Assembly: GCA_000505065.1 (NCBI GenBank)
Contig: AWSN01000001.1
Span: 559,929-623,928 of the forward strand
From: Parcubacteria bacterium RAAC4_OD1_1
Lineage (GTDB): Bacteria; Patescibacteriota; Minisyncoccia; Phycocordibacterales; UBA9973
Direction of reading: 5' to 3'
DNA: 64,000 nt
The translations under genes and the position numbers were made by a program. The notes beneath the pieces were generated by a model. It did no database searches. It was not told the DNA's origin and saw only the letters and a list, made by a program, of their open reading frames with translations. Of this stretch, positions 12,661-58,453 are shown one piece after another (positions within the stretch are counted from its first letter, which is position 1; every line of letters begins with the position of its first letter).

Positions 12661-12757
12661 GATTATATTTTAAGGCTTATTTTTAAAAAAGCTCTATTTT
12701 TGACGACCACTTCCCTTTAAAAACAGGTCGTCAGTGTTTTATTTTTGGTTCAAAAAA

Positions 12758-13651: not shown

Positions 13652-13774
13652 AAGGCTTATTTATTAGAAATATAAATTCATAGCTGACATTTTATTGATT
13701 ATGTTTTATAAATATATATAGTGCTGTTTTTTAATATGGTACATGATATAATCAAGAGTATCAAAATAAAAATT

Positions 13775-14836: not shown

Positions 14837-14837
14837 T

Positions 14838-15878: not shown

Positions 15879-15884
15879 TAGTAC

Positions 15885-17015: not shown

Positions 17016-17072
17016 TTTTTAAATGATTTGTCATCTATCACACCATAATGATATAATAAATTTACAATCAAA

Positions 17073-17190
17073 TAGTTAGTTATCAAGAGTATGGCGAGAG
17101 TATTGGCTCAATGACCCATCAGCAACCTGCAGAAACAAGGTGCTAAATCCAACCAAATAGTGGAAACACTATATGGAAAGATAAGACTAG
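17073..17190 (+). ncRNA. SAM-I family riboswitch aptamer
   Basis: TTATCAAGAG..GGCGAGAG..TGGCTC..GACCC..CAGCAACC..AAGGTGCTAAATCC..GGAAAGATAA; upstream of metK. Confidence 0.92.
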
Positions 17191-17200
17191 TCATCTATCT

Positions 17201-17224
17201 TTCCTCTTATTAGAGGAATTTTTT
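17201..17224 (+). terminator. riboswitch expression-platform terminator
   Basis: ttcctc-ttatta-gaggaa followed by a T-tract. Confidence 0.8.
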
Positions 17225-17238
17225 AATTCAAAAATAAT

Positions 17239-18204
17239 ATGAAGAAAACAGCAGAGTGTGTAAGTCCAATGCATCCAGATAAAATTTGCGATTTCATTGC
17301 AGATAATATTTTAGATGCATATCTAGAAGAAGATAAAAATAGTCGTTGTGCCATTGAAGTCATGGGAGGCCATAACCTTATTACAATAAATGGAGAAGTA
17401 ACATCAGGAGCTACCCCAGATATAGAAAAAGTAGTAAAAAGTTTAGTGGGTAATAATTTCAAGGTTATTTGTAATATAGTTAAACAGAGTCCAGAAATAG
17501 CTCGAGGTGTAGTTTCGGGTGGAGCTGGTGACCAAGGGATAATGAAAGGTTATGCTACAAGTGAAACCTCTTCCCTTATGCCATTAGAGTATGAACTTGC
17601 TAGAAGTTTATGTAATTATATCTATGATAAATATCCTTATGATGGAAAAACTCAAATTACTACAGAAAATGGATGTATTAATACGATTATTGCCAGTTTT
17701 CAAAATGCCCCCAAAAAAGAATTGGAAAAACTTGTTATGGAATGGTTTAAAAAACATGGAACAAAATCAAATAAAATATTTCAATATGAGGTATTTATAA
17801 ACCCAGCTGGAGATTGGTCTTTAGGTGGTTTTGATGCAGACACAGGACTTTCTGGTAGAAAGCTTATTGTTGATAACTATGGACCAGAAATACCTATTGG
17901 TGGTGGGTCATTCTCTGGTAAAGATTATACAAAAGTTGATCGTTCAGGTGCTTATATGGCTCGTAAAATAGCAGTTGATCTTCTTAAAAAACATAAAGCA
18001 AAAGAGGTCCATACTAAACTAGCATATGCTATTGGTAAAGCAGAACCAGTAATGGCAGTAGCTAGTATTGATGGACTTGAAATAGAAATTAAGGGTTATG
18101 ATTTAACACCCAAAGGAATATATGAATACTTAAATTTACAAGAAGTAAAATTCTCTAAAACTTCTAACTGGGGACATTTTGGAAGAGATTTCACTTGGAA
18201 TTAA
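17239..18204 (+). CDS. metK: S-adenosylmethionine synthetase (compact form)
   Basis: HPDKICD, GAGDQG, DGKTQ, GGFDADTGLSGRKLIVDNYG, GGGSFSGKDYTKVDRS, GHFG. Confidence 0.96.
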   Translation: MKKTAECVSPMHPDKICDFIADNILDAYLEEDKNSRCAIEVMGGHNLITINGEVTSGATPDIEKVVKSLVGNNFKVICNIVKQSPEIARGVVSGGAGDQGIMKGYATSETSSLMPLEYELARSLCNYIYDKYPYDGKTQITTENGCINTIIASFQNAPKKELEKLVMEWFKKHGTKSNKIFQYEVFINPAGDWSLGGFDADTGLSGRKLIVDNYGPEIPIGGGSFSGKDYTKVDRSGAYMARKIAVDLLKKHKAKEVHTKLAYAIGKAEPVMAVASIDGLEIEIKGYDLTPKGIYEYLNLQEVKFSKTSNWGHFGRDFTWN

Positions 18205-18228
18205 GAATTGGTGATATAATCATAAAAT

Positions 18229-18735
18229 ATGAGTTATATAAAATATTACAACTTGGAACAATATATATTCCAAGATGTTGGACCAAATTTTAGAAAGACA
18301 GGTAAAATTACCATAGAGGATTTTTTCTGTATAGTAATTTGGAAGGCAAATAGAGCTAAAACCAACATAAGAAAAAAATTATCTAAAAATACGACACTAA
18401 GTAAATCTATAATAAGTATTTCAGATGATATATATAATGCCCATTCAAAAGAAGAAAAACTAGAGATAATGATAAAGAAATGGAAGTTTGGATTTCCAAT
18501 GGCTACAGCTATTTTAACTGTATTATATCCAGAAGATTTCACTGTATATGACTATCGAGTACGAGGACAATTAAAAATAGAAAATATTTATAGCGTAGAT
18601 AAATATTTTAGTAAGTTTTTACCAAAAGTTAAAAAATATGCAGATTCTTTGGGTGAAAATTTAAGGAATACAGATAAGGAATTGTGGGGAAAATCTTTCT
18701 ATGAAGATCTTCAAAAACTAATAAAAAATGATTAA
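18229..18735 (+). CDS. hypothetical protein, HhH DNA-glycosylase-like
   Basis: IVIWK, GFPMATAILTVLYPEDFTVYDYRV resembles an HhH motif plus downstream Asp; D-x-x-LW near the C-terminus. Confidence 0.5.
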   Translation: MSYIKYYNLEQYIFQDVGPNFRKTGKITIEDFFCIVIWKANRAKTNIRKKLSKNTTLSKSIISISDDIYNAHSKEEKLEIMIKKWKFGFPMATAILTVLYPEDFTVYDYRVRGQLKIENIYSVDKYFSKFLPKVKKYADSLGENLRNTDKELWGKSFYEDLQKLIKND

Positions 18736-19444
18736 TGCTAACCTACTAAACGATAGAATAAAAAACTTTTTTGGATACGGTAGTCTAGATTCTACTGTCT
18801 GGTTTGTTGGTATGGAAGAAGGATTAAACCCAGGTATTGATGTAAAAGAATTAGAACTTCGTTTTCTTTCAGCATTTGGGAATGTAACTATTGATATGAG
18901 AAAAGATATGTCTAGGTTAGAAGGACATATGAAATGGTTTAAAAAAGATTCTCCAATACAAGCAACTTGGAAATATCCTATTGCTCTATATCTGTATCTT
19001 AAAAATAATAGAATCCCTACAAAAGAAGAAATTAGAGAACATCAAGGATTAGTACTTGGTGATAAAGAAAAGAAAGAAAGCACAACAATAGAATTAATGC
19101 CATTACCTTCAAATAAAGCTAACCAATCTACTTGGTTATATAAGAAATATAATGTTCCTGGTTTAAATTCAAGAAAAGAATATCTTGAAATGTATAAACC
19201 AGAAAGGGTTCAGAAATTAAAGAAACTAATAGAGAAGCACCGACCTAAACTAGTTATATTTTACTCTCTTACTTATTTACCAGAATGGACCGAGATTATA
19301 GGTGTTAATCCAAAAGAAATAACGAAACAAATGTATTTTATTAAGAAAAGTAATACTAGCTTTTGCATATTACCTCAAGGAGCTTCCCACGGTATGTCTT
19401 ATACAAGAGTTTATGAATATGGAGATAAAATAAAAACTCTCTAA
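18728..19444 (+). CDS. hypothetical protein, possible UDG-superfamily fold
   Basis: FFGYGSLDSTVWFVGMEEG, IELMPLP, RPKLVIFYS, ILPQGAS spaced like UDG motifs A/B; overlaps the upstream stop. Confidence 0.45.
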   Translation: MINANLLNDRIKNFFGYGSLDSTVWFVGMEEGLNPGIDVKELELRFLSAFGNVTIDMRKDMSRLEGHMKWFKKDSPIQATWKYPIALYLYLKNNRIPTKEEIREHQGLVLGDKEKKESTTIELMPLPSNKANQSTWLYKKYNVPGLNSRKEYLEMYKPERVQKLKKLIEKHRPKLVIFYSLTYLPEWTEIIGVNPKEITKQMYFIKKSNTSFCILPQGASHGMSYTRVYEYGDKIKTL

Positions 19445-21932: not shown

Positions 21933-22346
21933 ATATATTATTAAATTAATAAAAAGCACGAGGACTAATCGTGCTTAAGACTTTTTTATTGATAATGTGT
22001 CTCACTTACATAGTGTTAATGTGTATTTAAGATATGAGGGGTGGGGGGTTGTTCGATTTACCTCCCCTAGATAAACACGGGACCTGGGGTGATACGTTAC
22101 CTTTCGTTTCCGTGATGAAAAATAGGTGAAATGATATAACATACCACCTTACAGGATATATACCCGCATCCAAGTTTTGAACCATTGAAAAATATAGGTA
22201 TTTTAGAACCTCATTTCCAAATAGAGGCATATATAGGTGTGAGTGTCTATTTGTTGATTAGACTGTTTGGATGATATAATATAAGTGTTCGTAAAATTGA
22301 ATCAGTAATCTAAACCGAGTATTTATATATTTGGCATGATGAAAAA

Positions 22347-22449
22347 ACCAATGACGTGTAAAGAACCCAACATCAAGGGGTTACCGTCATTGGTCATATC
22401 TGGAAACGGATATGGATAGCTAAGGCTATCACCTTGTGTTGGGCTTTTT
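22347..22449 (+). ncRNA. candidate structured RNA with pseudoknot
   Basis: Crossing stems 22347-56/22385-94 and 22366-78/22432-43, plus two tetraloop hairpins and a T-tract. Confidence 0.55.
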
Positions 22450-33850: not shown

Positions 33851-34105
33851 ATGCCAATTACAAAATCAGCAAAAAAGGCACTAAGATCATCTGCTAAAAA
33901 AAGAGCTGTTAATGATCGTAACAAAAAGGTAGTCAAAGAATCAATTAAAGGTATTGAAAAGCTTGTTAAAGAAAAGAAAAAAGATGAAGCAAAAAAGCTT
34001 TTACCAAAAGCTTACAGTGCTATAGATAAAGCTTATAAAAAAGGAGTTATAAAGAAGAATAATGCATCTCGCAAGAAATCTCGTCTTTCACGAATTACAA
34101 AATAA
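33851..34105 (+). CDS. rpsT: 30S ribosomal protein S20
   Basis: MPITKSAKKALR...IDKA..KGVIKKNNASRKKSRL. Confidence 0.96.
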   Translation: MPITKSAKKALRSSAKKRAVNDRNKKVVKESIKGIEKLVKEKKKDEAKKLLPKAYSAIDKAYKKGVIKKNNASRKKSRLSRITK

Positions 34106-34114
34106 GTATTTAGA

Positions 34115-34145
34115 AACAATTCCCCGATTTATCGGGGAATTGTTT
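34115..34145 (+). terminator. intrinsic terminator
   Basis: aaacaattccccga-tt-atcggggaattgttt. Confidence 0.7.
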
Positions 34146-34174
34146 ATTTTGAGTAGGTGAGTATAATTATGTAT

Positions 34175-34441
34175 ATGCAAGATCTTATATTTTTTTATGG
34201 AGAGGGGTGCTCGTATTGTGTAGATATGGAAGAGAAAATTGATACTCTAATCAAAGAAGGTTTTAATATTTCTAAATTAGAAGTTTGGAACAATATGAAA
34301 AATGATGCTTTTTTAGAAAAGTTAGATAATGGAGAAGAGATTTGTGGTGGTGTGCCTTTTCTTATAAATAATAAATCTGGTAAAAGGATTTGTGGAGAGG
34401 CAACACTTGACGAACTTCGTTCTTGGGCCAAAGGAGAATAG
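34175..34441 (+). CDS. thioredoxin/glutaredoxin-like protein
   Basis: FFYGEGCSYC, GVPF. Confidence 0.85.
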   Translation: MQDLIFFYGEGCSYCVDMEEKIDTLIKEGFNISKLEVWNNMKNDAFLEKLDNGEEICGGVPFLINNKSGKRICGEATLDELRSWAKGE

Positions 34442-34462
34442 TTATTAATAATCTAAAAATTT

Positions 34463-35716
34463 ATGAAAAAGTTTATTGTTATCTTTTTGTTTGTATTATC
34501 ATTTTTGCAATTTGCAAAAATTTCTTATGCCGAAGAATTAAATGCTTATTTTTTCTATGGGCAAGGTTGTCCTCACTGTGCTAAAGAAGAAGTTTTTCTC
34601 GATAGTATCAAAGATAAATACCCCACACTTCAAATAAATACTTTTGAAGTTTATTACAATAAAGAGAATGGGGAATTGATGTCTAAAGTTTCAAAGATTT
34701 TAGGAGTAACTGCAAACGGTGTCCCATTTTTTGTGCTTGGTGATAAATCCTTTATTGGATTTTCAGAAAGTGTAACTCCAAGGGAAATTGAGACAAGGAT
34801 TAATGAATGTATAGTAAATACTTGTTCTGATTCTATAAAATCTTTAATCATTAAACCTCAAGTTATAACAGAAATTCAAAAAGAAAATATTGAAATAAAA
34901 AGTAGTGAAGTAGTAGATACAGCAAGTGTAGAAATAAAAACAGAAGGTAATATTAACAAGGAGAAAGAAAAAATTATAGATGTCCCATTTTTAGGAGAAT
35001 TAAATGTTTATGATTTTTCCCTACCTTTTATTACACTTGTCCTTGGACTTTTGGATGGGTTTAATCCTTGTGCTATGTGGACCCTCATCTTTCTTATAAG
35101 TTTGCTTCTTGGAATGGAAAATAAAAAAAGAATGTGGACACTAGGGATTGCCTTTATTGTTGTTTCTGGTGCAGTTTACTTTTTGTTTATGTCGGCTTGG
35201 CTAAACCTCATTCTTTTTCTTGGGTTTATAGCAATTGTTCGGATTATCATTGGACTCGTGGCTCTCTTTGGGGGAGGTTACTCACTTCGAGAATTCTTTA
35301 TAAATAAAGAGAATGTTTGTAAAGTCGGGGATGAAAATAAAAAAGAAAAAGTTTTTGAAAGATTAAAAATAATTACAAAAAAGAATAATCTTTTTATTGC
35401 TCTTTCGGGGATAATTTTACTTGCTTTTGTCGTGAATCTGATCGAGCTTGTTTGCTCGGCTGGGCTTCCTGCAGTGTACACACAGATACTTGCTATGAAT
35501 GATTTACCAAAAGCTGGATATTATTTGTATATACTTTTGTATATTTTTTTCTTTATGCTTGATGATCTTTTTGTTTTCATCATAGCGATGGTGACACTTC
35601 GTATGACAGGACTCAGTGGCAAGTATGCAAGGTTTTCTCATCTTATCGGCGGAACCATAATGATCATTATTGGTGTTTTTCTCATATTTAAGCCCGAGTG
35701 GTTGATGTTTGGATAA
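34463..35716 (+). CDS. glutaredoxin-domain membrane protein (CcdA/DsbD-like TM region)
   Basis: CPHC, GVPF, DGFNPCAMW, ELVCSAGLP. Confidence 0.85.
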   Translation: MKKFIVIFLFVLSFLQFAKISYAEELNAYFFYGQGCPHCAKEEVFLDSIKDKYPTLQINTFEVYYNKENGELMSKVSKILGVTANGVPFFVLGDKSFIGFSESVTPREIETRINECIVNTCSDSIKSLIIKPQVITEIQKENIEIKSSEVVDTASVEIKTEGNINKEKEKIIDVPFLGELNVYDFSLPFITLVLGLLDGFNPCAMWTLIFLISLLLGMENKKRMWTLGIAFIVVSGAVYFLFMSAWLNLILFLGFIAIVRIIIGLVALFGGGYSLREFFINKENVCKVGDENKKEKVFERLKIITKKNNLFIALSGIILLAFVVNLIELVCSAGLPAVYTQILAMNDLPKAGYYLYILLYIFFFMLDDLFVFIIAMVTLRMTGLSGKYARFSHLIGGTIMIIIGVFLIFKPEWLMFG

Positions 35717-35741
35717 AATTATTATTAATTAAAAAATATTT

Positions 35742-36140
35742 ATGAAAAATTCTTATAATTGGTACCAGACTCTTGTGAAGCCCACTTGGGCGCCACCATC
35801 ATGGCTTTTTGGGCCGGTGTGGAGTGTCCTTTATGTGCTCATTGCCATTTCTTTTGGTAGTGTGTTTGTAAAATTCTTCCAAAAGAAAATTCCTTTTATT
35901 GTAATCTTGCCATTTATTTTAAATTTAATTTTTAATTTCACTTTCACTTATTTTCAATTCGGATTAAAGAGTAATATTTTGGCAATGATAGACATCCTCC
36001 TAGTCCTTATTACTCTCATCTGGGCGATGCTCGCTATTTACCCATATATGAAATGGGTAGCACTTATAAACATCCCATATCTTCTTTGGGTTTCTTTTGC
36101 GACAGTTCTCCAAATCACGATTACTGTTTTAAATAAATAA
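35742..36140 (+). CDS. tspO: TspO/MBR family protein
   Basis: WYQTLVKPTWAPPSWLFGPVWSVLY, PYLLWVSFA. Confidence 0.92.
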   Translation: MKNSYNWYQTLVKPTWAPPSWLFGPVWSVLYVLIAISFGSVFVKFFQKKIPFIVILPFILNLIFNFTFTYFQFGLKSNILAMIDILLVLITLIWAMLAIYPYMKWVALINIPYLLWVSFATVLQITITVLNK

Positions 36141-36176
36141 TTTAAAATTTTAGTAGTCCGACTACTAAAATTTTAA
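36135..36176. repeat. palindrome with AGT-CCG-ACT core, copy 1
   Basis: ttaaaattttagtagt-ccg-actactaaaattttaa. Confidence 0.8.
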
Positions 36177-36283
36177 TCTGTGTTATAATTTTACTTTAAA
36201 TAATATGAATTGAAAGAAAAGTATTCCCTCGTTTGTACTATTAATATAAAGGTCGTATTAATAGATATTAAACAACAAATACA

Positions 36284-36670
36284 ATGAATAAAAAAACATT
36301 AGCATTGATAGGGGTTTCGACTTTAGCACTAGGTGCAGTAGTCCTTTCACCGAGCTTTATAGAAGCTTACCGTGGGGACATAAATGTAAAAGGTCCAAAT
36401 TATACAGCCGAGAGACATGAAGCAATGGAGAAGGCTTTTGAAACTAAAGACTTTACAGCATGGCAGAAGCTTATGGAAGGCAGGGGCAGAGTTACACAAG
36501 TTATAAACAAAGACAACTTTGCAAAGTTTGCAGAAATTCACGAGCTTTTAGAAGATGGCAAAAAGGATGAAGCAAATAAATTAAGAGCGGAGCTTGGACT
36601 TGGATTACAAAATGGTATGGGCCAAGGCAAGGGAATGGGCCAAGGTATGGGTAGGATGAATAATCGTTAA
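36284..36670 (+). CDS. exported hypothetical protein
   Basis: Signal peptide; Gly/Met-rich tail GMGQGKGMG. Confidence 0.75.
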   Translation: MNKKTLALIGVSTLALGAVVLSPSFIEAYRGDINVKGPNYTAERHEAMEKAFETKDFTAWQKLMEGRGRVTQVINKDNFAKFAEIHELLEDGKKDEANKLRAELGLGLQNGMGQGKGMGQGMGRMNNR

Positions 36671-36726
36671 AACTAATTTTAATTCAAAAGCCCTGAAGTG
36701 TCGGGGCTTTGGGTTAAATATATTAA

Positions 36727-37269
36727 ATGTTTGAATACAAAAATAAAACAGATGAAGAAGTTGTCTCTTATGTCCAATCAGAATATCAGGAGTTTTATTT
36801 TGTGATAGTAGATAGATATAAAGACAAGCTCTCCCGCTATGTGGGTTCAATGACCAAGGATGAAGTGAAAACGAGGGATATAGTACAGGAAACTTTTATA
36901 AAAGCATTTATAAATTTAAGAGGTTTTGATAAGAATAAAAAGTTTTCAAGTTGGATATATCGTATCGCTCACAATGAAGCAATAAATACACTCAAGAAGA
37001 ATTATAGAGAAATTCCTTTTGAAGAAGATTTTGATATAAAAAGTGAAGAAGACATTGTTCTTGATTTTGAAAAGAAGGAAATATCAAAAAAACTGGATAA
37101 ATGTATAAATGATATGCCACTTATTTACAGAGAGTCACTCGTCCTTTATTTTATAGAAGAGAAATCATATGAAGAAATAAGCGACATCATCCGTATCCCT
37201 ATGGGGACTGTCGCCACGAGGATTAATAGGGCAAAAATTTTAATGAAAAAAATATGTCAAAAGAATTAA
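36727..37269 (+). CDS. ECF RNA polymerase sigma factor
   Basis: DIVQETFIKAF, FSSWIYRIAHN, SYEEIS..IPMGTVATRINRAK. Confidence 0.93.
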   Translation: MFEYKNKTDEEVVSYVQSEYQEFYFVIVDRYKDKLSRYVGSMTKDEVKTRDIVQETFIKAFINLRGFDKNKKFSSWIYRIAHNEAINTLKKNYREIPFEEDFDIKSEEDIVLDFEKKEISKKLDKCINDMPLIYRESLVLYFIEEKSYEEISDIIRIPMGTVATRINRAKILMKKICQKN

Positions 37270-37733
37270 ACAAAACAACAGAAGAAATAATGGAGAAAAT
37301 AAAAAAGGGGCATATAAAGATGCGCCCAAGAGTTTATTTTGTAATGGGTTACATTCTCACTATATTGGGTGCTGTCTTTTCATTTGTCACTTCTGTATTT
37401 TTTATTGGATTAACTCGGTTTGCGATTCGGGCCCATGGGCCGATGGCAGGGTATCGCTTGGACCAAATACTTTCTAGTTTTTCTTGGTGGATACCAGCAC
37501 TAGCAGTGCTCGGTATAGTCTCCGGAGTTTATATATTAAAGAAGTATGACTTTTCTTACAAAATAAATTTTAAATTATTTATCATCGGACTTTTGGCATC
37601 CATACTAATTGCAGGGTATGTGATAGACCTCACAGGACTAAACGATTCCCTAGCCCGCCGTGGTGGCAAATGGAAAGAGGGGAGGCAATTCCAAAAACTA
37701 AATAATCCTCAAGGGGAAGGGTTTAGGAGATAG
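37254..37733 (+). CDS. putative anti-sigma membrane protein
   Basis: Three TM helices; overlaps the ECF sigma 3' end. Confidence 0.6.
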   Translation: MSKELNKTTEEIMEKIKKGHIKMRPRVYFVMGYILTILGAVFSFVTSVFFIGLTRFAIRAHGPMAGYRLDQILSSFSWWIPALAVLGIVSGVYILKKYDFSYKINFKLFIIGLLASILIAGYVIDLTGLNDSLARRGGKWKEGRQFQKLNNPQGEGFRR

Positions 37734-37734
37734 A

Positions 37735-37771
37735 ATTTTAGTAGTCCGACTACTAAAATTTTAAATTATTT
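37735..37771. repeat. palindrome with AGT-CCG-ACT core, copy 2
   Basis: aattttagtagt-ccg-actactaaaattttaaattattt. Confidence 0.8.
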
Positions 37772-37813
37772 GGTTTATTTTTATGGATAGGTTATAATAT
37801 AAACACAATTAAA

Positions 37814-37932
37814 TAGTTTGATATCAAGAGTATGGCGAGAGTACTGGCTCGAAGACCCATCAGCAACCCTTAGAAATAAGAAGGTGCTAAATCCAGCCAA
37901 TAGCAGAAATGTTATATGGAAAGATAAGACTA
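37814..37932 (+). ncRNA. SAM-I family riboswitch aptamer (second copy)
   Basis: Same consensus as 17073-17190, with compensatory change atagtg-gaaa-cactat vs atagca-gaaa-tgttat. Confidence 0.88.
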
Positions 37933-37943
37933 GTCATCTATCT

Positions 37944-37966
37944 TTCCTCATTATGAGGAATTTTTT
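37944..37966 (+). terminator. riboswitch expression-platform terminator
   Basis: ttcctca-tta-tgaggaa-tttttt. Confidence 0.8.
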
Positions 37967-37980
37967 AATTTAAAAGGTAT

Positions 37981-38064
37981 ATGCAACAATTTTTAATTGC
38001 ACTTGCGATAGTTTTTATTCCTATGGTCTTTGGGGGAATATTATATTTAGTTTATATGAAATAA
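37981..38064 (+). CDS. 27-aa hydrophobic peptide downstream of the SAM riboswitch (not in ORF track)
   Basis: MQQFLIALAIVFIPMVFGGILYLVYMK; ATG at the same offset from the terminator as the metK ATG in copy 1. Confidence 0.55.
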   Translation: MQQFLIALAIVFIPMVFGGILYLVYMK

Positions 38065-38142
38065 GATGAAAACCCCGTATTTTGGGGGTCCAAGATTAAA
38101 TTGTAAAAAAGTTGGAAGTATGAGAGAATAATAATATAATTT

Positions 38143-39204
38143 ATGAAAAAAATGAAAGTATTAGATCTTTTTTCTGGTGTTGGTGGTCTTAGTTATGGTT
38201 TTAAAATGGCAGGTTTTAATATCGCAGGAGCGATAGATTTTGAAAAATCATTTGTTGAATCAATGAAAAAAAATCATTCACATACAGAAGTATTTTGGGG
38301 TGATATAAGAGATATAGAACCAGAAAAAGTAAAAAATAAAATAGGAAATATTGATATTATAGTGGGAGGTCCACCATGCCAAGGTTTTTCTCTTAAGGGA
38401 CAAAGAAAAGGTCTTGAAGATGAAAGGAATTTTTTATTTAAAGAATACATAAAATATATAGCTTACTTTAAGCCGAAGTTTTTTGTTATGGAAAATGTTC
38501 CTAACATTCTTAGCGAAAAAGATGGTTACTTTAAAGATCAAATATTAAAAGAATTTAATAAATTAGGATATAAGGTTACATATGGTATTTTAAATGCTTC
38601 GGATTTTGGTGTTCCTCAGAACAGAAGAAGGGCTATTTTTTTAGGAACAAGATTAAAAAAAGAAATTGAACTCCCAAAGAGAATTATAAAAGAAAAAGTT
38701 ACAGTTTGGGATGCTATTTCTGATTTAGCATATTTGGATTCCGGAGAAGGATATTTTGAATCAAATTACAAGACAAAACCATTATCAGAATATCAAAAAA
38801 TATTAAGAAAAAATTCTAAAAAATTATTTAATCATCAAGCAACAAATCATTCAGTCATAGCAATTGATAGATTAAAACGAATACCACCAGAGAAAGGAAA
38901 AGAGTATTTACAAGAAAGGATATCTTCTACTTTTGGTCAAACATGGGGAAGATTGGAAAAAAATAAGCAGAGCCCAACAATTGTTACAAGATTTGATACA
39001 CCTTCAAATGGAAAAAATTCTCACCCTTTCTTAAATAGAGCAATTACCCCTAGAGAAGCTGCTAGAATACAATCTTTTCCAGATCATTTTATTTTTTATG
39101 GTAATAAAACATCAGTAAATAAACAAATAGGTAATGCTGTTCCTCCTTTGCTTGGCAAAGCTATAGCAGATAGTATAATAAAGTATATAAGACAAAATAA
39201 TTAG
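38143..39204 (+). CDS. DNA (cytosine-5)-methyltransferase
   Basis: DLFSGVGG, GGPPCQGFS, ENV, PQNRRR, QIGNAVP. Confidence 0.96.
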   Translation: MKKMKVLDLFSGVGGLSYGFKMAGFNIAGAIDFEKSFVESMKKNHSHTEVFWGDIRDIEPEKVKNKIGNIDIIVGGPPCQGFSLKGQRKGLEDERNFLFKEYIKYIAYFKPKFFVMENVPNILSEKDGYFKDQILKEFNKLGYKVTYGILNASDFGVPQNRRRAIFLGTRLKKEIELPKRIIKEKVTVWDAISDLAYLDSGEGYFESNYKTKPLSEYQKILRKNSKKLFNHQATNHSVIAIDRLKRIPPEKGKEYLQERISSTFGQTWGRLEKNKQSPTIVTRFDTPSNGKNSHPFLNRAITPREAARIQSFPDHFIFYGNKTSVNKQIGNAVPPLLGKAIADSIIKYIRQNN

Positions 39205-39208
39205 TTTT

Positions 39209-39850
39209 ATGATAAACCAAGTACACAACATAGATGCCTTGAAATTACTAAAAGCTATTAAAGATAAATCAATTGATCTTTTTTTAACAGATATCCCTTA
39301 TGAAAAAGTTAATAAAAAATCAAATGGCTTAAGAAAATTGGACAAAGAAAAAGCTAACACAAAAACATTTGAATTGAAAGATTTTCTTGTTCAGGTAGAT
39401 AGAGTAACAAAAGGAAGTGGATATATTTTTTGTGGAAAGGAACAAGTTTCTATAATTTTTGAATTCTTTGACCAAAAGAAATACACAACAAGATTAATGA
39501 TCTGGGAAAAAACAAATCCAAGTCCAATGAATTGTCAATACTCATGGATGAGCGGAATTGAAACTTTTATTTATTTTAAGAAACCGAACGCTACGTTTAA
39601 TGAACATTACAAAAATAGTGTTTTAAGATTCCCGAATGGTCAAAGCAAGAAACATCCAACAGAAAAACCATTAAAATTATTTAAATATTTAATAGAAGTT
39701 AGTTCTAATAAGGGTGATTTAGTTTGTGATCCATGTGTAGGTTCTGGTACTACAGCTGTAGCTTCTAAAATGCTAAGTAGAAATTTTTTGGTTGGTGATA
39801 TTGATGAAAATTATTGTAAGTTAACACAAAAGAGACTAATTATTAGTTAA
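39209..39850 (+). CDS. DNA N6-adenine/N4-cytosine methyltransferase (beta class)
   Basis: TDIPY motif IV precedes HPTEKP and DPCVGSGTT motif I. Confidence 0.9.
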   Translation: MINQVHNIDALKLLKAIKDKSIDLFLTDIPYEKVNKKSNGLRKLDKEKANTKTFELKDFLVQVDRVTKGSGYIFCGKEQVSIIFEFFDQKKYTTRLMIWEKTNPSPMNCQYSWMSGIETFIYFKKPNATFNEHYKNSVLRFPNGQSKKHPTEKPLKLFKYLIEVSSNKGDLVCDPCVGSGTTAVASKMLSRNFLVGDIDENYCKLTQKRLIIS

Positions 39851-39861
39851 TTTTTTATTTT

Positions 39862-41028
39862 ATGATAAATATTAATCAATTATTAAATAAACCAATTGAA
39901 ACCTTATTAGCAGTTTTTTTTAATACCACTAAAAATAAAGAAAATAATTTTGAAGTATGTTCAAGATATCGTCAAACTAAATTTGCTAAATTACCTAAAA
40001 ATTCATATGAACAGACAGCTATTAGTTTATCAAATAAATATAAATTAAATTTCAATTCTAATGGAAAAGGGTTAATTATTTCAATTATTAATAATAATCA
40101 TAATTATGATCTTAATGATTTTTTAAATGTCGTTTATGATTCAATTGTTGTTAAGTTAAATAAATTACCTAGTAATTATTTACTTGATGTTGAAATAGCT
40201 TTAGCTCTATTTATGTTTCGTGGAAGTGTAGATTTTAATAGGAGTTTTTATTCTGTTGATTTAAAAAATCCCACAAAGGATTACATTGATAATTTTTTTA
40301 AGGTTCTTTTATCATCAGATGATTTATTATCTCGTCTAAATTTAAATTTCCGCGAATTACAACCCCAATATGTTGAAGGTAGAAATTTAAGAAACACACA
40401 AGTCAGAATAAACTTAAAGTGGTTTTATGATAATGTGATATTAAATTTTAGTAATATTAATAAATATAAAACAGATATTTTTTTTAAAAATATTGCGAAG
40501 TTAGGAGAAATAAGAAAATATAATATTTTTGAAGAAAGAATAATATTATATAAACAATCTATTTTTGGTAGAAAATTAAATAAAAATGAAATAAATAAAC
40601 TTAGAAATGAATTACAATTTAGTTTAAATGATGAACAAACTAAGGGTAATAAATTTTCTATTAGAAATCAAAAAATTGTTTCTTACGCAAGAGAAATATT
40701 TAATGATGTTTGTGTTGGTTGTAATTATACTTATAATATTAAAGATCGTTCTTTTAAAATGCCACGAAACGATAGATATTATTTTGAGATAAATCATGTT
40801 ATTGCTTATTCTAGTGATTCTGTTGTGGTAGATGTATTAGATAATTTAGTAAAACTTTGTCCTACTTGCCATAGAGCTTTAACACCTGGAAGAGCTTATG
40901 AGGAATTACAAAAAACAATTATAAAAAATATGTTAAATTCTAGAAAAGAAGTAAGTAGATTTGTTGATTTAATGAAACCAAAAGAATTTAAGTCGTCTAT
41001 TGATTATGTATATAAAATGTTGAAATAA
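39862..41028 (+). CDS. HNH-type restriction endonuclease (putative)
   Basis: C-terminal CVGC...FEINHVIAY...DNLVKLCPTCHR; follows two MTases. Confidence 0.8.
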   Translation: MININQLLNKPIETLLAVFFNTTKNKENNFEVCSRYRQTKFAKLPKNSYEQTAISLSNKYKLNFNSNGKGLIISIINNNHNYDLNDFLNVVYDSIVVKLNKLPSNYLLDVEIALALFMFRGSVDFNRSFYSVDLKNPTKDYIDNFFKVLLSSDDLLSRLNLNFRELQPQYVEGRNLRNTQVRINLKWFYDNVILNFSNINKYKTDIFFKNIAKLGEIRKYNIFEERIILYKQSIFGRKLNKNEINKLRNELQFSLNDEQTKGNKFSIRNQKIVSYAREIFNDVCVGCNYTYNIKDRSFKMPRNDRYYFEINHVIAYSSDSVVVDVLDNLVKLCPTCHRALTPGRAYEELQKTIIKNMLNSRKEVSRFVDLMKPKEFKSSIDYVYKMLK

Positions 41029-41050
41029 TTTTCATAATTATTTTTAATAA

Positions 41051-41659
41051 ATGAAAAAAGAAATCCTTGAAATTTTTAAAGAAAATGTTGATATTAATCG
41101 TCTTATGAAAGATGAACAGAATATTAATATTAGTTATAAGGATAACTCATATTTTATTTCATATGTTGAATTTTTAAAATATTTTAAGGATTTAAATAAA
41201 ATAACAATACATAATATGATTATCGGTATAAATTTTACTCATGGATGGATGCCTACTATTTTTGATTTCAGATCTAATAATTTTGATGAAGTTGTTAAAA
41301 TATTAAATAATACCAAACAGGGAATAATTCCTAATATAGACCAGCTAGAAATTCTTAAAAAATGTTTCAATAATTCATTAGTTGGATCTTCAAAGATTTT
41401 ACATTTTATAAATCCAGATAAATTTGCTATTTGGGATAGTCGAGTATTTCGTTATTTAACTAATAAAAAATATGGAATTGATAATTGTAAATATTATTTA
41501 GATTATTTAAAATTTTTTGAATATATAACAAATAAACCGGAATATAATAAAATTCACGAATCAATTATAAATAAAGTTGATTATGAAATGACAAAATTTA
41601 GAACATTAGAACTTATTATGTATATTAAAGGGAAGAAAAATAAATTAAATAAAATATAA
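41051..41659 (+). CDS. hypothetical protein, HhH-glycosylase-like motif
   Basis: LVGSSKILHFINPDKFAIWDSRV. Confidence 0.5.
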   Translation: MKKEILEIFKENVDINRLMKDEQNINISYKDNSYFISYVEFLKYFKDLNKITIHNMIIGINFTHGWMPTIFDFRSNNFDEVVKILNNTKQGIIPNIDQLEILKKCFNNSLVGSSKILHFINPDKFAIWDSRVFRYLTNKKYGIDNCKYYLDYLKFFEYITNKPEYNKIHESIINKVDYEMTKFRTLELIMYIKGKKNKLNKI

Positions 41660-49248: not shown

Positions 49249-50502
49249 TTATTTAAAATAAACTTTCCTAATTTTTGAGCCCAATAAAGAAGTAAAATAA
49301 TTTAAAAATTTATTATTACTTTTAGATACTTGATTTAAAGAGATTTTTTTATCATTATTTTTTACCAAAAAAACTCTCGTCCCTAAATTGCATTTATTTA
49401 TATTTGTTATATTTATAGCAAAATTATTAGAACTAATTAGCCCAAGATTATGAGTATGTTTTTTATTTAAAAAGACTGTTGCTTTTTCTGATAAATATCC
49501 TGTATTACCCCATCCTACAGGGATAGTGGCAACCTTTAATTTTTGTTTTGCTACATATTTTTTAAAATATCCAATAGCATCACCCTTACTAACATAATTT
49601 ATATCTGTTATGTGTGTTATCACTGATGAAATAATAGGATTATTTAAAAATCTACCTTTCTTATCTTGAAGAGTCCCATAAATAAGACACCCTGGTCTTA
49701 CAAAAACCTTAACACCAGGTAGAATATCATTAAATATTTTTTTATTATAAGATTTTTTAAAATTAATAATAGCAGAACTATTGGCACAATGTATTGATGA
49801 AATTTTTATCTTACTATAAGATACTTCCTTTAAAATATGTAAAAATTTATCAAACTGAATAGCTGTAAATTTTTTATCTTCGGCATCAGTAAAATGAGTC
49901 CACAAACTTTCTATTTTTATAAAGCTTAATTTAGAAGTATTATGAATTAATTTAAATGCTTTATTTACATTAACACCATATCGATTTAATCCAGTATTAA
50001 TTTGGATATGAACTTTTGCTATTTTATTTTTATCTTTTGCTATTTTATTTAATAAAACCATTAATTCATAAGAGCTAACAGTAATTTCGACATCCAAATC
50101 TAAAAGTTTTGAAAAATGATCATAGAATGGTGGATAAAGCAAAATAATAGGTGTTTTTATTTTATTTTCTCTGAGAATTATGGCTTCATCTATAGAACCA
50201 ACAGCAATTTTATCTGTGCCTAACTTTTCTAATATTTTAGCTATTGGTACTAACCCATGTCCATAAGCATTGGCCTTCAGAACAGAAATTATTCCTATGT
50301 TTAAACCAACTTCACTTGATATTTTTTTATAGTTTTCTTCTAATTGATATAAGTTAATATTCATCCAAGTTAATGGTAAATTATTTTTTTCTATTATTTT
50401 GCTTTTAATATTTTTATTAAAATAATTGTTTATATCAGTATTCCCTCTGATACTGAATAGGCCCCCGTCTTCTTTCTCATAATAAATATTTTCTTTAATC
50501 AT
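49249..50502 (-). CDS. alanine-racemase-family PLP enzyme (divergent)
   Basis: VLKANAYGHG, NTGLNRYG, THF, HCANSSA, VRPG, IGY; GLISSN replaces GRVCMD. Confidence 0.85.
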   Translation of the reverse strand: MIKENIYYEKEDGGLFSIRGNTDINNYFNKNIKSKIIEKNNLPLTWMNINLYQLEENYKKISSEVGLNIGIISVLKANAYGHGLVPIAKILEKLGTDKIAVGSIDEAIILRENKIKTPIILLYPPFYDHFSKLLDLDVEITVSSYELMVLLNKIAKDKNKIAKVHIQINTGLNRYGVNVNKAFKLIHNTSKLSFIKIESLWTHFTDAEDKKFTAIQFDKFLHILKEVSYSKIKISSIHCANSSAIINFKKSYNKKIFNDILPGVKVFVRPGCLIYGTLQDKKGRFLNNPIISSVITHITDINYVSKGDAIGYFKKYVAKQKLKVATIPVGWGNTGYLSEKATVFLNKKHTHNLGLISSNNFAINITNINKCNLGTRVFLVKNNDKKISLNQVSKSNNKFLNYFTSLLGSKIRKVYFK

Positions 50503-50514
50503 ATTAATAAAAAA

Positions 50515-51732
50515 TTAATCAAAACTATAATAAATATTCTTAAATCGTGAATTAAATTTAATTACGTTGTTTTTAATATTTTTCCCTTTTAGTGAATCAT
50601 CTATAAAAATAGCTATTTCTTCCATATCTTTTTCCCTCATACCTCTTCTTGTGATTTCTTGTGTGCCAAGCCTGATAAATAATCTATTCCCCAATCTGTC
50701 ATCAAAATTAGTTGATATATTATTCTTAACAAGGTTGTTGTATGTTTTCTTTCTATTACCAAAATTATCTATATACAAATGAACCTGATGATTTAATGAA
50801 TACAAACCGTCAGGCGTTCTCCTTACTTCATAACCAAGACTTTCTAAACTCGCCCCTAGCTGATTAGAATTTTTTATAATTTGTTTCGCATACTCTTTAC
50901 CATATTTTTTCATTTCAAGAATGGATATAGATAATGATATAAGATGATGTGTATGAGAAGAAGAAACCAGTCCTTTGCTAATAACATCATTTACTTTCTT
51001 GGCTAATTTTTTATTTTTAAAAGCAATTAATCCTTTTTGTGGCCCTGGAAGAGTTTTGTGTGTATTTGCACAAATAATATCAGCTCCTTCTTTGAGAGGT
51101 GATTGAAATTGCCCACCCATCATTAAACCTATTGTGTGGCTTGCATCATATATAATAATAGCCTTATTGCCTAATGATTTTCTTAGTACCTTAATATTTA
51201 TTGGATTAATACAATATGAGATATCTAAATATAATAGTTTACACTTTTTTTCTTTAAAAATATCCTTAATTTTTTTACTATCAAAATCTAAAGATTCTAA
51301 ATTAAATGGGGCATAGACATATTTTCTGCCAGTTCTTTTTAAAATGTGACTTGTTGCAAAATGCCCTCCATCTTTATGTGCTACAATCATTACAGTATCA
51401 CCTGGATTAGATAAAGAAAGTATAGCGCACATCATTGCATGCACACCAGAAAGACAAAGTGGTGTAAAACTCTCACAGTTTATCATTTTTTTCATTGATG
51501 AATTTGCTTCATCTATTAAATCCTGAATATCTTTAAGTCCAAGACATGTGAAAGGATTCCAATCTATAATTCCTTTTACACCTGAACCAAAGAAATATCT
51601 CTCAGATAATTTACTGAATAAAAAGCCATTGGCTGTCTCAGAAAGCTGATTTTCATATGCAGTTAAATGCAAGAAATTACTATTCCTTTTTTCTAACTTT
51701 TTTATATTACTAATTAATTTATTTATTTTCAT
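50515..51732 (-). CDS. SHMT-fold PLP enzyme, L-threonine-transaldolase-like
   Basis: LTAYEN, LSGVHAM, GGHFAT, YDASHTIGL, ANTHKTLPGPQKG, RLGTQEITRRG. Confidence 0.72.
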   Translation of the reverse strand: MKINKLISNIKKLEKRNSNFLHLTAYENQLSETANGFLFSKLSERYFFGSGVKGIIDWNPFTCLGLKDIQDLIDEANSSMKKMINCESFTPLCLSGVHAMMCAILSLSNPGDTVMIVAHKDGGHFATSHILKRTGRKYVYAPFNLESLDFDSKKIKDIFKEKKCKLLYLDISYCINPINIKVLRKSLGNKAIIIYDASHTIGLMMGGQFQSPLKEGADIICANTHKTLPGPQKGLIAFKNKKLAKKVNDVISKGLVSSSHTHHLISLSISILEMKKYGKEYAKQIIKNSNQLGASLESLGYEVRRTPDGLYSLNHQVHLYIDNFGNRKKTYNNLVKNNISTNFDDRLGNRLFIRLGTQEITRRGMREKDMEEIAIFIDDSLKGKNIKNNVIKFNSRFKNIYYSFD

Positions 51733-51735
51733 AAC

Positions 51736-53112
51736 TTATATTTTTACGTATAAAATCATTAACTTATTGCTATTTCGCATTTTTATAAGTACATTTTTAA
51801 TCTCTTGTAAGCTAATCTTATTATAATCAATTTCAATCTTATCTATTTTTTTATCAATATTATAAATACTGGAAATTAATTTTTGCCCACCAGTGGAAAC
51901 AGAACCATTATTATCTATAACAATAATCCCCATTGAAATCTTTCTAGAAACAGCTTCAGATAGTGCTTGAATTCCGCTATGTAAAAAAGAAGCATCCCCA
52001 GTAATACAAAATGGATATTGAACTCCCCCTAAAACAAGACCAATGCCATTCCCGACAGAAGATCCTAAACATAGGCAAGAATCAATCACATGTGTCGATT
52101 CAACTGTGAATTGTCCTACGTCACCAACTACAAAACTTGGTTTTATAGATTTAATTGCTTTAAATAATTTAGATAAATTATCCCAAACAATCCAATTCTT
52201 AGATTCATCAGAAATAATTTTAATCTTTGATTTTAGGACCAGATTCTTATTTTTGTTTTGAATTAAATTCTCAATTTTTTTGAAGACTAAATCATCTCCT
52301 TGTTCAAGAACAACAACTTCATTTTTTTTATTAATAAATTTTTGAATTGTTTTTTTGGGGATGGGATATGTTTCAATAAATAATTTATCCCAGTATTTAT
52401 ACTTTTTTAAATATGACTCCTCTAATGAAGCCCCAACAGCTATAACACCTAATTTACTTTTTTTATATGGTATATACTTTATAAATTTATCAACAAAATT
52501 ATCGATCTCAATATTTTTTTGGTCTAATCTTTTTTTCTGTTCTAACCAATAATTTGGGTAAATTATATATTTATTACTATTTTTGGATATCTTTATTTTA
52601 TCTAATTTTATTTTGTCTAATTTTTTATAATCATCAATTAAATTAAAAAAATTATTTGTAAGACGTATAACAACAGGAGTATCATATTTTTCTGATAAAT
52701 AAAAAGACTGTCGTGCAATATTATATGCAGAATTTAATGAATTAGGCTCAAACCACATCCCACCAAAGAAATCATGGTAATGCCTTGAATCTTGTCTTTC
52801 TTGTGATGCAACAACATCAACATCTTCTGTAATAACAATAACCATCCCCCCATTAACTCCAGATAATAATGAATGTAAAAATGGGTCAGATGCAACATTT
52901 AGCCCAATATTTTTTATTGTTAAAAGACTTCTTTTTCCTGACAAACTAATCCCATAAGATATATCAAAAGCTACTCTTTCATTCAATGATATTCTATCCC
53001 CGTTAAGATTATCAAAAATTTCATGACTATAAAAACCTGGGAAATTTATAACATTATCAACTCCGCCATCAATAAAACCGTCACACAATGTTTTTATAGA
53101 TTTTTTAATCAT
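51736..53112 (-). CDS. ThDP-dependent enzyme (IorA-like, no ferredoxin domain)
   Basis: NERVAF, KNIGLNVASD, QDSR, GDASFLHSG...IDNNGSVSTGGQ. Confidence 0.82.
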   Translation of the reverse strand: MIKKSIKTLCDGFIDGGVDNVINFPGFYSHEIFDNLNGDRISLNERVAFDISYGISLSGKRSLLTIKNIGLNVASDPFLHSLLSGVNGGMVIVITEDVDVVASQERQDSRHYHDFFGGMWFEPNSLNSAYNIARQSFYLSEKYDTPVVIRLTNNFFNLIDDYKKLDKIKLDKIKISKNSNKYIIYPNYWLEQKKRLDQKNIEIDNFVDKFIKYIPYKKSKLGVIAVGASLEESYLKKYKYWDKLFIETYPIPKKTIQKFINKKNEVVVLEQGDDLVFKKIENLIQNKNKNLVLKSKIKIISDESKNWIVWDNLSKLFKAIKSIKPSFVVGDVGQFTVESTHVIDSCLCLGSSVGNGIGLVLGGVQYPFCITGDASFLHSGIQALSEAVSRKISMGIIVIDNNGSVSTGGQKLISSIYNIDKKIDKIEIDYNKISLQEIKNVLIKMRNSNKLMILYVKI

Positions 53113-54584
53113 ATTTCAATTTTAGATTTTATTAATGGGCTATCATTATTTTCAAAATTAATATTTGATTTATAAATTAAACTCATTATTTTTGCGGGAA
53201 TATCATGTGATGTTATATTAGACAACATAGAATTTATATCAATAAAACCTCCTAAATAATTTAAAAATTCTAATATCACCAATTCTTTTGCGGTTTCATG
53301 AAATAATTTATTATCCTGAAAGTCATTTTCCTTATCTAAATCTTTGAGATTATAAACTTTTAATGGTAATTCATCTTTGCTAAACATTTTTGCATTTCTA
53401 AAAACATAAATATCAAAATGATTATTCCCCCCTAAATTATAATCGTGAACAGTATTTTTATCTTGCATATCATTAGATTGATAATTATGTATTTGTATAC
53501 ACTGAAATGGACCTTGTTGTATATAATAATATTGATGCTTTACTCTTCCGTTTCCTTTATATAAATCATCATTGGGCTTAATCCATGCTCTTCTTGAAAA
53601 ACTGTTGTGAAGTAAATTTACTGATATATTACAAATATTTATATTATTTTTTGTTAATTTTATATTAGAAAAAATATCTATTTCCCCATAGTTTTTATAT
53701 AGTTCTTTAAGCTCTATTTCATCTCTTCTTTTACATTTATTATAAACTTCTTTACCAAAATAATTCTCATAATCTTTTTGCCCAAATTGAACCAATAAAC
53801 CTTCTGGATTAAGAAAAGATGAATATACCTCTATTCCATCTGGTTCTTTATCTTTTACTAAACCATTTTTATAGAGTTGCCAAATTATATCAAAAATATG
53901 ATAACTACTATGTGACCCCTTACCATAACCCAAATTATATGGATGATATGTTTGTTCAACTATTTCATCTGGAAATATCCATACCCCATCTGAGTGCATT
54001 GCCTGTATTGATGTTACTGGTGCATTAAATTTTTCTGAAACTTCTTTAATTAAATCAAATACTTTTAAATATCCTTTTTCATATCTTCGCTGTACATTTA
54101 TAGAAAAAACTGTTTCTTTTTCTTTTTGTAATTTTAAATAAGCTTTCAGTATTTCCTCATAGTCATCATAAATACCATCAGCCTGTTTTATATTATGACT
54201 AACATTTTTTCTTGTTGAAATTGGTTTATCCATTAAAATATTTAAACCTTGACTAATTGCCCATAATGCATAACTTTTATGAGCTAATGGTTCCGTAGAA
54301 ATAACAACACCTGTTATATTATTTTCTTTAACAGCAATAGAAAGTAAATCTCTGTTTTCTTCTGATAATTCTTGAGTATTATCATAATCCTCAATGTAAA
54401 ACATTTTTAGGTTAAAATTATTAGAATCAAGATAGTCTTCTATATTATTTTTTTTACTTTTAAAATCTACTCCTAATTTTAAACAAAAAGGCATATTATC
54501 CATATGTTTAAACAATGTTGGAATATAAATTCTCTTTGCATGCAATCCAACCCCTATTATCATTATGTTATTACATATGGGCAT
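53109..54584 (-). CDS. Gfo/Idh/MocA family oxidoreductase
   Basis: IIGVGLHA, ISTEPLAH, ILMDKP, NVQRRY, HSSYHIFD. Confidence 0.82.
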   Translation of the reverse strand: MPICNNIMIIGVGLHAKRIYIPTLFKHMDNMPFCLKLGVDFKSKKNNIEDYLDSNNFNLKMFYIEDYDNTQELSEENRDLLSIAVKENNITGVVISTEPLAHKSYALWAISQGLNILMDKPISTRKNVSHNIKQADGIYDDYEEILKAYLKLQKEKETVFSINVQRRYEKGYLKVFDLIKEVSEKFNAPVTSIQAMHSDGVWIFPDEIVEQTYHPYNLGYGKGSHSSYHIFDIIWQLYKNGLVKDKEPDGIEVYSSFLNPEGLLVQFGQKDYENYFGKEVYNKCKRRDEIELKELYKNYGEIDIFSNIKLTKNNINICNISVNLLHNSFSRRAWIKPNDDLYKGNGRVKHQYYYIQQGPFQCIQIHNYQSNDMQDKNTVHDYNLGGNNHFDIYVFRNAKMFSKDELPLKVYNLKDLDKENDFQDNKLFHETAKELVILEFLNYLGGFIDINSMLSNITSHDIPAKIMSLIYKSNINFENNDSPLIKSKIEI

Positions 54585-57655: not shown

Positions 57656-58453
57656 ATGGAAATATTTCCAAAAAATCGCAATGAAACAAAAGATCAAAAT
57701 CAAATTGAATCTTTAAATCCAATTATTTCTAAACAGTCTGAAGTTATTAATAGGCAAACTGAAACAGAAAACTCTCAAGAAAGAGATAATCTTATTAATT
57801 CAAAAAGGGATGAGATTCTAGATATGCTTGATGATAGAAAAAATAATATTGAGAATGAAGAAGAAATAAAAGAAGGTATTGATTTTGTGTTTGAACAAAA
57901 TTCAGAATTAGAAAAAATCGGAACGAAAGAACAGTATTCTAAATATTTAGATACTATATTTCCTGACAGTAAAGTAACAGATATTGTTTATCATGGAACT
58001 GTTAATAATTTTGATGAATTTAATCTTAATTATTTTAATTCAAATTCTGGATCTAGAGACAGAAAAGATCCTGCTTTTTATTTTACTAGTAAAAGTATAG
58101 TTGCTAAAGATTTTTTATTTAAAAAAAATGGGAAAATACTATCTTCTTTACTTAATATAAAAAATCCAGAAATAATAGATGGTAAACATAAAAACCTTAT
58201 AGGCAAAAGAGGAGTAACCACATTCGTTGATATTCCAGGTTTTATAAAAAATGGTAAAGATGGAATGGTTATTAATGATGTTTTGGATATAGATCCAAAA
58301 GCTGGGTTAAAGAGAGTAATTGATGGTATTGGAAATGAAGAATATTATTCTAATATTTATGCAACTTTTGGAAATAATCAGTCTTTTATTCTAGGATCTA
58401 AACAAGATTTAGAAAATTTCAAAAAATTTCTTGAAAATAATAAAGACTCATAG
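57656..58453 (+). CDS. ADP-ribosyltransferase-like (ART-PolyVal-like) domain protein
   Basis: IVYHGT..FDEF, AFYFT, LNIKNP, DGMVI, YATF. Confidence 0.62.
   Translation: MEIFPKNRNETKDQNQIESLNPIISKQSEVINRQTETENSQERDNLINSKRDEILDMLDDRKNNIENEEEIKEGIDFVFEQNSELEKIGTKEQYSKYLDTIFPDSKVTDIVYHGTVNNFDEFNLNYFNSNSGSRDRKDPAFYFTSKSIVAKDFLFKKNGKILSSLLNIKNPEIIDGKHKNLIGKRGVTTFVDIPGFIKNGKDGMVINDVLDIDPKAGLKRVIDGIGNEEYYSNIYATFGNNQSFILGSKQDLENFKKFLENNKDS

Follow-up and report, generated by a model that had tools for sequence, protein, structure and literature searches.

A metK-type SAM-I riboswitch precedes a predicted 27-residue membrane peptide beside a restriction-modification cassette in a Parcubacteria genome

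Results

The window analysed here is a 64,000-nucleotide stretch of Parcubacteria bacterium RAAC4_OD1_1 (contig AWSN01000001.1, positions 559,929 to 623,928), in which a second S-adenosylmethionine (SAM)-I riboswitch stands in front of a 27-residue open reading frame (ORF). This ORF is followed by a restriction-modification (R-M) cassette of two DNA methyltransferases (MTases) and a restriction endonuclease (REase), and by a gene with likeness to helix-hairpin-helix (HhH) proteins. The features are listed in Table 1 in coordinates of the window. The genome is a single contig of 693.5 kb with 31% G+C and a completeness of 95.7%. It was compared with 93 genus genomes, 401 family genomes and 400 order genomes, each search covering the set stated with it; labels of the form G0xx denote relative genomes and Lxxx denote loci read from genomes or metagenomes.

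Table 1. Features of the switch-peptide locus, the adjoining cassette and the reference switch in front of metK
Feature	Position	Strand	Basis
Predicted switch promoter	37770..37798	+	Weak -35, spacer 17 nt, perfect -10 at 37793-37798; read from sequence
SAM-I (S-box) aptamer, copy 2	37818..37930	+	RF00162, 57.9 bits, full model (positions 1-108)
Predicted antiterminator	37918..37947	+	P1 3' strand pairs with terminator 5' arm, 9 bp, -9.2 kcal/mol
Intrinsic terminator hairpin and U tract	37944..37966	+	Stem 37944-37960, -7.6 kcal/mol
27-residue predicted single-pass membrane peptide with PXXXG	37981..38064	+	ORF at metK start position
G+C hairpin	38070..38091		Terminator-like on minus strand, no plus-strand U tract
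Promoter-like site for R-M operon	38112..38140	+	10/12 consensus bases
C5-cytosine DNA MTase	38143..39204	+	PF00145, E 2.5e-81; PADLOC MTase_II
N6/N4 DNA MTase	39209..39850	+	PF01555, E 1.4e-26; PADLOC MTase_II
HNH Type II REase	39862..41028	+	PF01844; PADLOC REase_II, E 7e-65
202-residue protein, predicted HhH-GPD DNA glycosylase-like fold	41051..41659	+	Widespread unnamed family, 929 homologs
Copy 1: SAM-I aptamer, terminator and metK	17077..18204	+	Aptamer 17077-17187 (54.5 bits); metK 17239-18204

SAM-I switches are feedback controls of methionine and SAM genes. Only two matches to RF00162 occur in the whole genome, copy 1 in front of metK and copy 2 in front of the peptide ORF, and the first-pass annotation of this DNA had described the latter as an intact second switch with promoter and terminator. 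The covariance-model scan bears this out, as copy 2 lies above the gathering score of 44.4 bits and scores on par with metK-linked copies. The -10 box of copy 2 and the block after it are kept across 28 leaders; the promoter is unlisted in the promoter scan, its -35 box fitting only three of six bases. In the 28-leader alignment the core A-U/U-A pairs of helix P1 are invariant in 28/28 leaders, P1 is 99% paired, 8 of 16 pairs show both-sided changes, and the named helices are 92.6% paired versus 34-55% for slid controls, values that refer to a structure drawn from the first alignment row and to leaders that are kin and not independent. Terminator and antiterminator are mutually exclusive in the predicted folds, in which the OFF (-31.4 kcal/mol) and ON (-31.8 kcal/mol) states are 0.4 kcal/mol apart without ligand. 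The compensatory changes previously noticed in P4 were also recovered: relative to copy 1 there are two both-sided changes and one change from G-C to G-U. P4 variants resembling those of copy 2 are also present in metK-linked leaders, therefore the P4 changes are no sign of selection after the peptide joined the leader.

Copy 2 is an intact SAM-I leader of the metK type. Judging from its aptamer it would bind SAM, and it is predicted to stop transcription when SAM is plentiful and to allow it when SAM is low. It shares with transcription-terminating SAM-I/S-box (RF00162) leaders of metK the full-length match, the P1 core, the antiterminator/terminator arrangement and the metK-like spacing to the ATG, but differs in its cargo, which is the 27-residue membrane peptide and no methionine or SAM gene. 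For Clostridioides difficile, one source (PMC11477304) places only methionine/SAM metabolism and transport genes downstream of SAM-I switches. Between the upstream anti-sigma gene and the switch promoter (37734-37790) lies a short repeat resembling repetitive extragenic palindromes, which occurs at about five sites in the genome and is missing at the corresponding junction of G022, a close relative (84% nucleotide identity over 34027-37739).

Over the stretch that runs from the -10 box to the ATG, copies 1 and 2 share 84% identity, and in both the downstream ATG starts 20 nt past the terminator stem. By the leader tree and identities (support 92/86, with an open fork), leaders of other genomes (89%) are closer relatives of copy 2 than copy 1 is (85%), and for this reason copy 2 was probably acquired separately; local duplication of copy 1 is disfavoured by the same data at modest support. 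The earlier description of copy 2 as a paralog of the metK switch thus stands as far as the type of leader is concerned, while its origin is better ascribed to separate acquisition than to a local duplicate. Copy 1 and metK themselves lie downstream of another Type II R-M cassette, in an island of their own (12734-19444) with an integrase after a tRNA, two C5 MTases, an NgoFVII-type REase, switch and metK, and genes for proteins of 168 and 238 residues. The same metK-168-238 block, plus an extra 75-residue gene, is found at L067. The 168-residue protein and the 202-residue protein of the copy 2 locus share a short HhH-like segment, so both switch islands hold a glycosylase-like gene. A LOOT RNA (RF03000) lies at 22307-22430 in the island region of the window, and in G151 a further one follows a lone SAM switch at a distance of about 300 nt (L044:5927-6053).

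The 27-residue ORF is present as quoted in the first-pass annotation. The best 19-residue hydropathy of the peptide is 2.6, and the genus and family searches gave a sole homolog, a 28-residue peptide of the genus member G061 with 52% amino acid identity. Of 27 codons compared between the two genes, 16 agree at the first position, 22 at the second and 13 at the third, and synonymous codons encode 7 of the 13 conserved residues other than Met. Because of this coding-type substitution pattern the ORF looks like a real gene. Its product would be translated and inserted into the membrane. Upstream of the G061 gene lie a -10 box and a terminator tail like that of copy 2 (0/2000 shuffles), a tail pattern that occurs at three sites in five genomes, namely the two window switches and the G061 peptide gene. 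This shared tail indicates that the link between leader and peptide is older than the split of the two peptide copies, which have diverged by 37% at the nucleotide level. At the G061 locus the terminator is weakened (-3.4 vs -7.6 kcal/mol in copy 2), neither an aptamer nor a neighbouring R-M gene was found beside the peptide gene, and the G061 genome gave no metK match. The missing aptamer suggests that SAM control is dispensable in one peptide copy.

No peptide homolog beyond that of G061 came from a single-sequence search of 251 family genomes or from profile searches, which covered 93 genomes of the genus and 401 of the family; the weak rows lay mostly inside longer frames, and two weak short-frame rows (G694, G701) fell outside the inspected set. 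In a GTDB scan nine rows were obtained: one is the G061 homolog, six similar ones are of Lachnospiraceae type and outside the inspected set, and two were rejected (the wrong strand of another gene; a transporter segment). A viral scan gave no rows. The peptides of 33 and 35 residues behind the switches of G043 and G151 were rejected as members of the same family, having been missed by the profile and being 19-30% identical. A 21-residue ORF at 38066-38131 was taken as chance.

The peptide had been likened to type I toxins. As described in one source (PMC7472228), Fst/Ldr toxins of the par locus are peptides of about 30 residues with one predicted membrane helix that features P/D/S/TXXXG, and the P and G residues of PXXXG are essential for toxicity in Fst. 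The window peptide and its G061 homolog resemble these toxins in length, in the single predicted helix and in PXXXG (P14, G18), a motif that 8 of the 337 membrane-like segments in this genome contain. They differ in that the window peptide has no conserved Trp, ends in a single Lys instead of a highly charged tail and carries Gln at residues 2-3 instead of a charged N-terminus; the G061 homolog has no Trp and a short charged tail. The locus differs further from Fst/Ldr in its predicted control by a metabolite riboswitch and in apparently having no bidirectional terminator: the 38070-38091 hairpin carries a U tract on the minus strand alone and is missing after the G061 homolog, direct repeats having been checked by eye only. 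No toxin-family match was found in Pfam (E up to 10), NCBIfam or PADLOC with HMMER, whose filters lose weak matches. The toxin reading retains its likeness to Fst/Ldr in PXXXG and has lost ground on the Trp, the terminal charges and family membership. A type I toxin-antitoxin module in C. difficile prophages (PMC11477304) likewise combines a riboswitch in a mobile region with a small-toxin module and a second internal promoter, but that c-di-GMP-I switch senses c-di-GMP and controls the antitoxin RNA, whereas the switch described here is predicted to sense SAM and fronts the peptide.

A survey of the genes behind homologous switches returned assorted cargo. The DNA behind all 34 switch copies of the genus was read: 23 front metK, which is found in 23 of 93 genus genomes, and 11 front other ORFs, most of which begin just past the U tract. 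Among these are a Cys-rich family seen in three genomes, two more families with two genomes apiece, and two hydrophobic peptides of 33-35 residues, which are of another type than the 27-residue peptide. In other genera of the family, metK lies behind the switch in 24/24 loci read (new loci with downstream DNA, one contig-end copy and six locus-less copies excluded). The same leader subfamily was read at 26 partly redundant metagenome loci: 22 carry metK, two carry the first metK codons only, in one an inserted 304-residue gene separates the switch from metK, and one has a GIY-YIG gene, and the 27-residue peptide is found in none of them. At L059 and L060, metK is truncated behind an intact switch. 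Because 11 of 34 copies front non-metK ORFs and both metK truncation and gene insertion are seen, cargo exchange at the metK start is, judging from the loci read, common in this genus. Among the genus, family and metagenome loci read, R-M genes directly behind a switch occur only here. MTases are nearby in 5 of 18 long genome switch loci and in 3 of 26 metagenome loci, mostly upstream, and serine recombinases are nearby in 4 of the 18.

Further observations concern the cargo itself. In three genomes a lone SAM switch has a member of the Cys-rich family (88-95 residues) immediately downstream, while in other genomes the family lies two genes past metK (L034, L035, L037, L046, L063). Near a serine recombinase of G064, two divergent SAM-I switches stand back to back (L040:5109-5472; L042:5370-5963); one of them fronts a 147-residue family that is switch-linked in G049 too. 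A second short hydrophobic peptide type, of 33-35 residues, stands directly behind switches in two genomes without a metK match (L031:2272-2373; L045:4973-5080).

The first-pass annotation had joined switch, peptide and R-M genes into one candidate defence system. The comparison with relatives separates them. In G022, the anti-sigma stop is followed by a look-alike of the 38070-38091 hairpin (19/2000 shuffles) and then by a cassette with MazG-like and Schlafen-helicase genes, and neither switch nor peptide was found in this slot. The hairpin is likely an ancestral intergenic element of the slot, and by synteny it divides switch and peptide from a cassette that can be exchanged. The R-M trio occurs in L099 with no switch and no peptide, and G061 has the peptide with neither R-M genes nor aptamer. 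The R-M operon likely uses the promoter-like site after the hairpin, from which transcription would begin so near the ATG at 38152 that the mRNA would be almost leaderless; the promoter scan returned 46 sites vs 37.5 +/- 5.6 in shuffles, and a match alone is not proof. These observations speak against a single system. In the G022 slot (L123:7904-10298) the MazG-like gene is paired with a GIY-YIG/Schlafen group 3 helicase/S24 gene, a defence-like combination.

The four genes behind the peptide are those that had been read from the DNA at first, with a weak fold match for the HhH-like one. Homologs of the REase number 181, the named ones coming from several phyla, and it is present in 0/92 other genus genomes and 0/400 order genomes. 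The C5 MTase, N6 MTase and HNH REase have the identical gene set and order, in one direction, as the Hin4II/HpyAV Type IIS R-M systems (PMC2816704), and one 587-position PADLOC model spans the two MTases over their full length, as it would a C5+N6 fusion enzyme; the likeness drawn here is one of gene set and order, and the HhH-like gene follows. Site-avoidance analysis identified no R-M target, and CCTTC, for which Hin4II/HpyAV are specific, is not depleted in the genome (0.97), a value that is uninformative for a recent island. A plasmid homolog of the REase adjoins a C5 MTase and has no annotated peptide, in an incomplete gene table. The model of the 202-residue protein has a pLDDT of 90.8. 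Its top seven VIA matches are HhH-GPD glycosylases, at a weak best Z of 7.1 (rmsd 4.2 over 145 residues), and its Atlas neighbours are DUF6308/OGG/HHH; Foldseek gave no match at E 0.001 or better, and a sequence search of solved structures gave chance rows only. The family is a candidate accessory anti-phage DNA glycosylase. It has invariant Lys115 and Asp129, and a 70% identical homolog lies upstream of the truncated-metK switch in L060 (L060:199-777).

Elsewhere in the window, the minus strand of 49249-54584 encodes a GFO/IDH/MocA oxidoreductase, a TPP-domain protein, an SHMT-like PLP enzyme and an alanine racemase, a metabolic-looking cluster unusual for a small genome, and the 265-residue product of 57656-58453 weakly matches an ART-PolyVal ADP-ribosyltransferase (E 6e-9).

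It had also been suggested that SAM depletion, for example by a phage SAM lyase, would trigger the peptide as an alarm guarding R-M. Type II endonucleases are generally SAM-independent, and we know of no SAM lyase that counters Type II R-M. The three R-M systems of this genome are all Type II. HsdM, PglZ and Type III Mod/Res had no match in the genome, which has one N6/N4 MTase, and its ResIII matches are housekeeping proteins, the last two of which we take by inspection to be UvrD-like and FtsK-like. With only Type II R-M and no marker of Type I, Type III or BREX that could be disabled, there is little for such an alarm to guard, and this suggestion was not borne out; SAM loss could still be an infection signal. 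T3 SAMase counters Type I R-M and BREX, both of which require SAM for restriction, according to 10.1101/2023.02.27.530186.

Discussion

Our favoured reading, with a probability of about 0.6, is that copy 2 works as a SAM-I OFF switch for a small membrane protein that is not lethal, and that the R-M cassette beside it is independent. When SAM is plentiful the terminator would stop transcription before the peptide, and when SAM is low the peptide would be transcribed. The peptide likely crosses the membrane once and does not kill the cell, and exchange of cargo at the start codon of metK is the likely origin of the arrangement. The R-M genes are likely a separately acquired cassette, likely with their own promoter; some SAM-dependent read-through into them is likely, and would be incidental. 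As a guess, the peptide may tune a membrane protein (for example one for methionine/SAM uptake from a host) or dampen growth in SAM shortage. The reading builds on what is directly seen, that is the aptamer, the terminator/antiterminator geometry, the ORF, its one homolog and the module boundaries.

Several points weigh against it. Among the 401 family genomes the switch was found with the peptide only once and the peptide has a single homolog, so that the switch-peptide link rests on two sequences. PXXXG, being rare in the genome's membrane segments, points towards a toxin. As for the independence of the cassette, the hairpin likeness in G022 is modest and was assessed post hoc, L099 is the only locus read that has all three R-M genes, and the internal promoter is a consensus match only. 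No plus-strand terminator was found between peptide and MTase, which are 78 nt apart on the same strand, therefore co-transcription or read-through is possible.

The best surviving alternative, which we hold to be unlikely, is that the leader was stranded by loss of metK and that the peptide is a passenger, SAM control bringing no benefit or the unit decaying. Truncation of metK behind intact switches (L059, L060) would fit this, as would the lone-switch cargo families that also occur downstream of metK (Cys-rich in G022 and L063; 65-75 residues in L067), the P4 changes in metK-linked leaders and the G061 peptide kept with no aptamer. However, the aptamer has no sign of decay, the ORF has a coding pattern, the terminator-tail link predates the 37% nucleotide divergence, and other non-metK cargo stays with diverged switches in the genome pairs G048/G033 and G049/G064. 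The first-pass annotation had itself allowed for a relic of a lost metK, with a peptide that is not conserved and MTases served by an internal promoter; this picture, with its internal promoter and a leader stranded when metK was lost, is borne out in part, but the peptide is conserved.

We do not favour a suicide switch triggered by phage, although it is possible. In its full form, in which a phage drains SAM, the switch opens and the infected cell is halted by a membrane toxin of the Fst/Ldr type, we regard it as improbable, more so than a stranded leader. PXXXG in both homologs, the defence-like cassettes in the slot of both this genome (G000) and G022, and the MTases and serine recombinases near switch loci are in its favour, and an OFF switch could conceivably replace an antitoxin. 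Against these stand the missing Trp, charged tail, N-terminal charges and family match of the peptide, the targets of T3 SAMase, none of which was found in this genome, and the separability of the modules in G022, L099 and G061. The G061 ORF, kept with no aptamer behind a weakened terminator, is also hard to square with a lethal product. Least probable of all, by a little, is that the switch raises the MTase by read-through at low SAM and so protects the host from its own endonuclease, the peptide being a leader by-product: same-strand genes with a short, terminator-free gap would permit it, but the REase in the same operon would presumably rise too, a promoter-like site intervenes, no other switch locus read has R-M directly behind it and the peptide is conserved apart from R-M.

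A bolder version of the toxin idea, which we consider a long shot, is that the SAM-I switch, with no antitoxin involved, holds an Fst/Ldr-like membrane toxin in check like a safety catch, that it is opened by SAM-draining phage enzymes or by loss of the metK island or of host supply, whereupon the cell is arrested, and that the small switch cargo of the genus comprises effectors of SAM shortage.

In open-licence PMC and bioRxiv literature we found no report of a SAM riboswitch controlling a toxin, a small membrane peptide or an R-M operon, and none of SAM riboswitches in Patescibacteria; a SAM-I switch gating a 27-residue membrane protein would thus be an output not found in that literature. 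If the peptide is a toxin, the riboswitch would act as a phage sensor. If it is not, the locus still illustrates how the metK leader has repeatedly taken up cargo within a single Patescibacteria genus (11/34 copies vs 0/24 read in sister genera), and the peptide would be a candidate player in the handling of SAM shortage by ultra-small bacteria.

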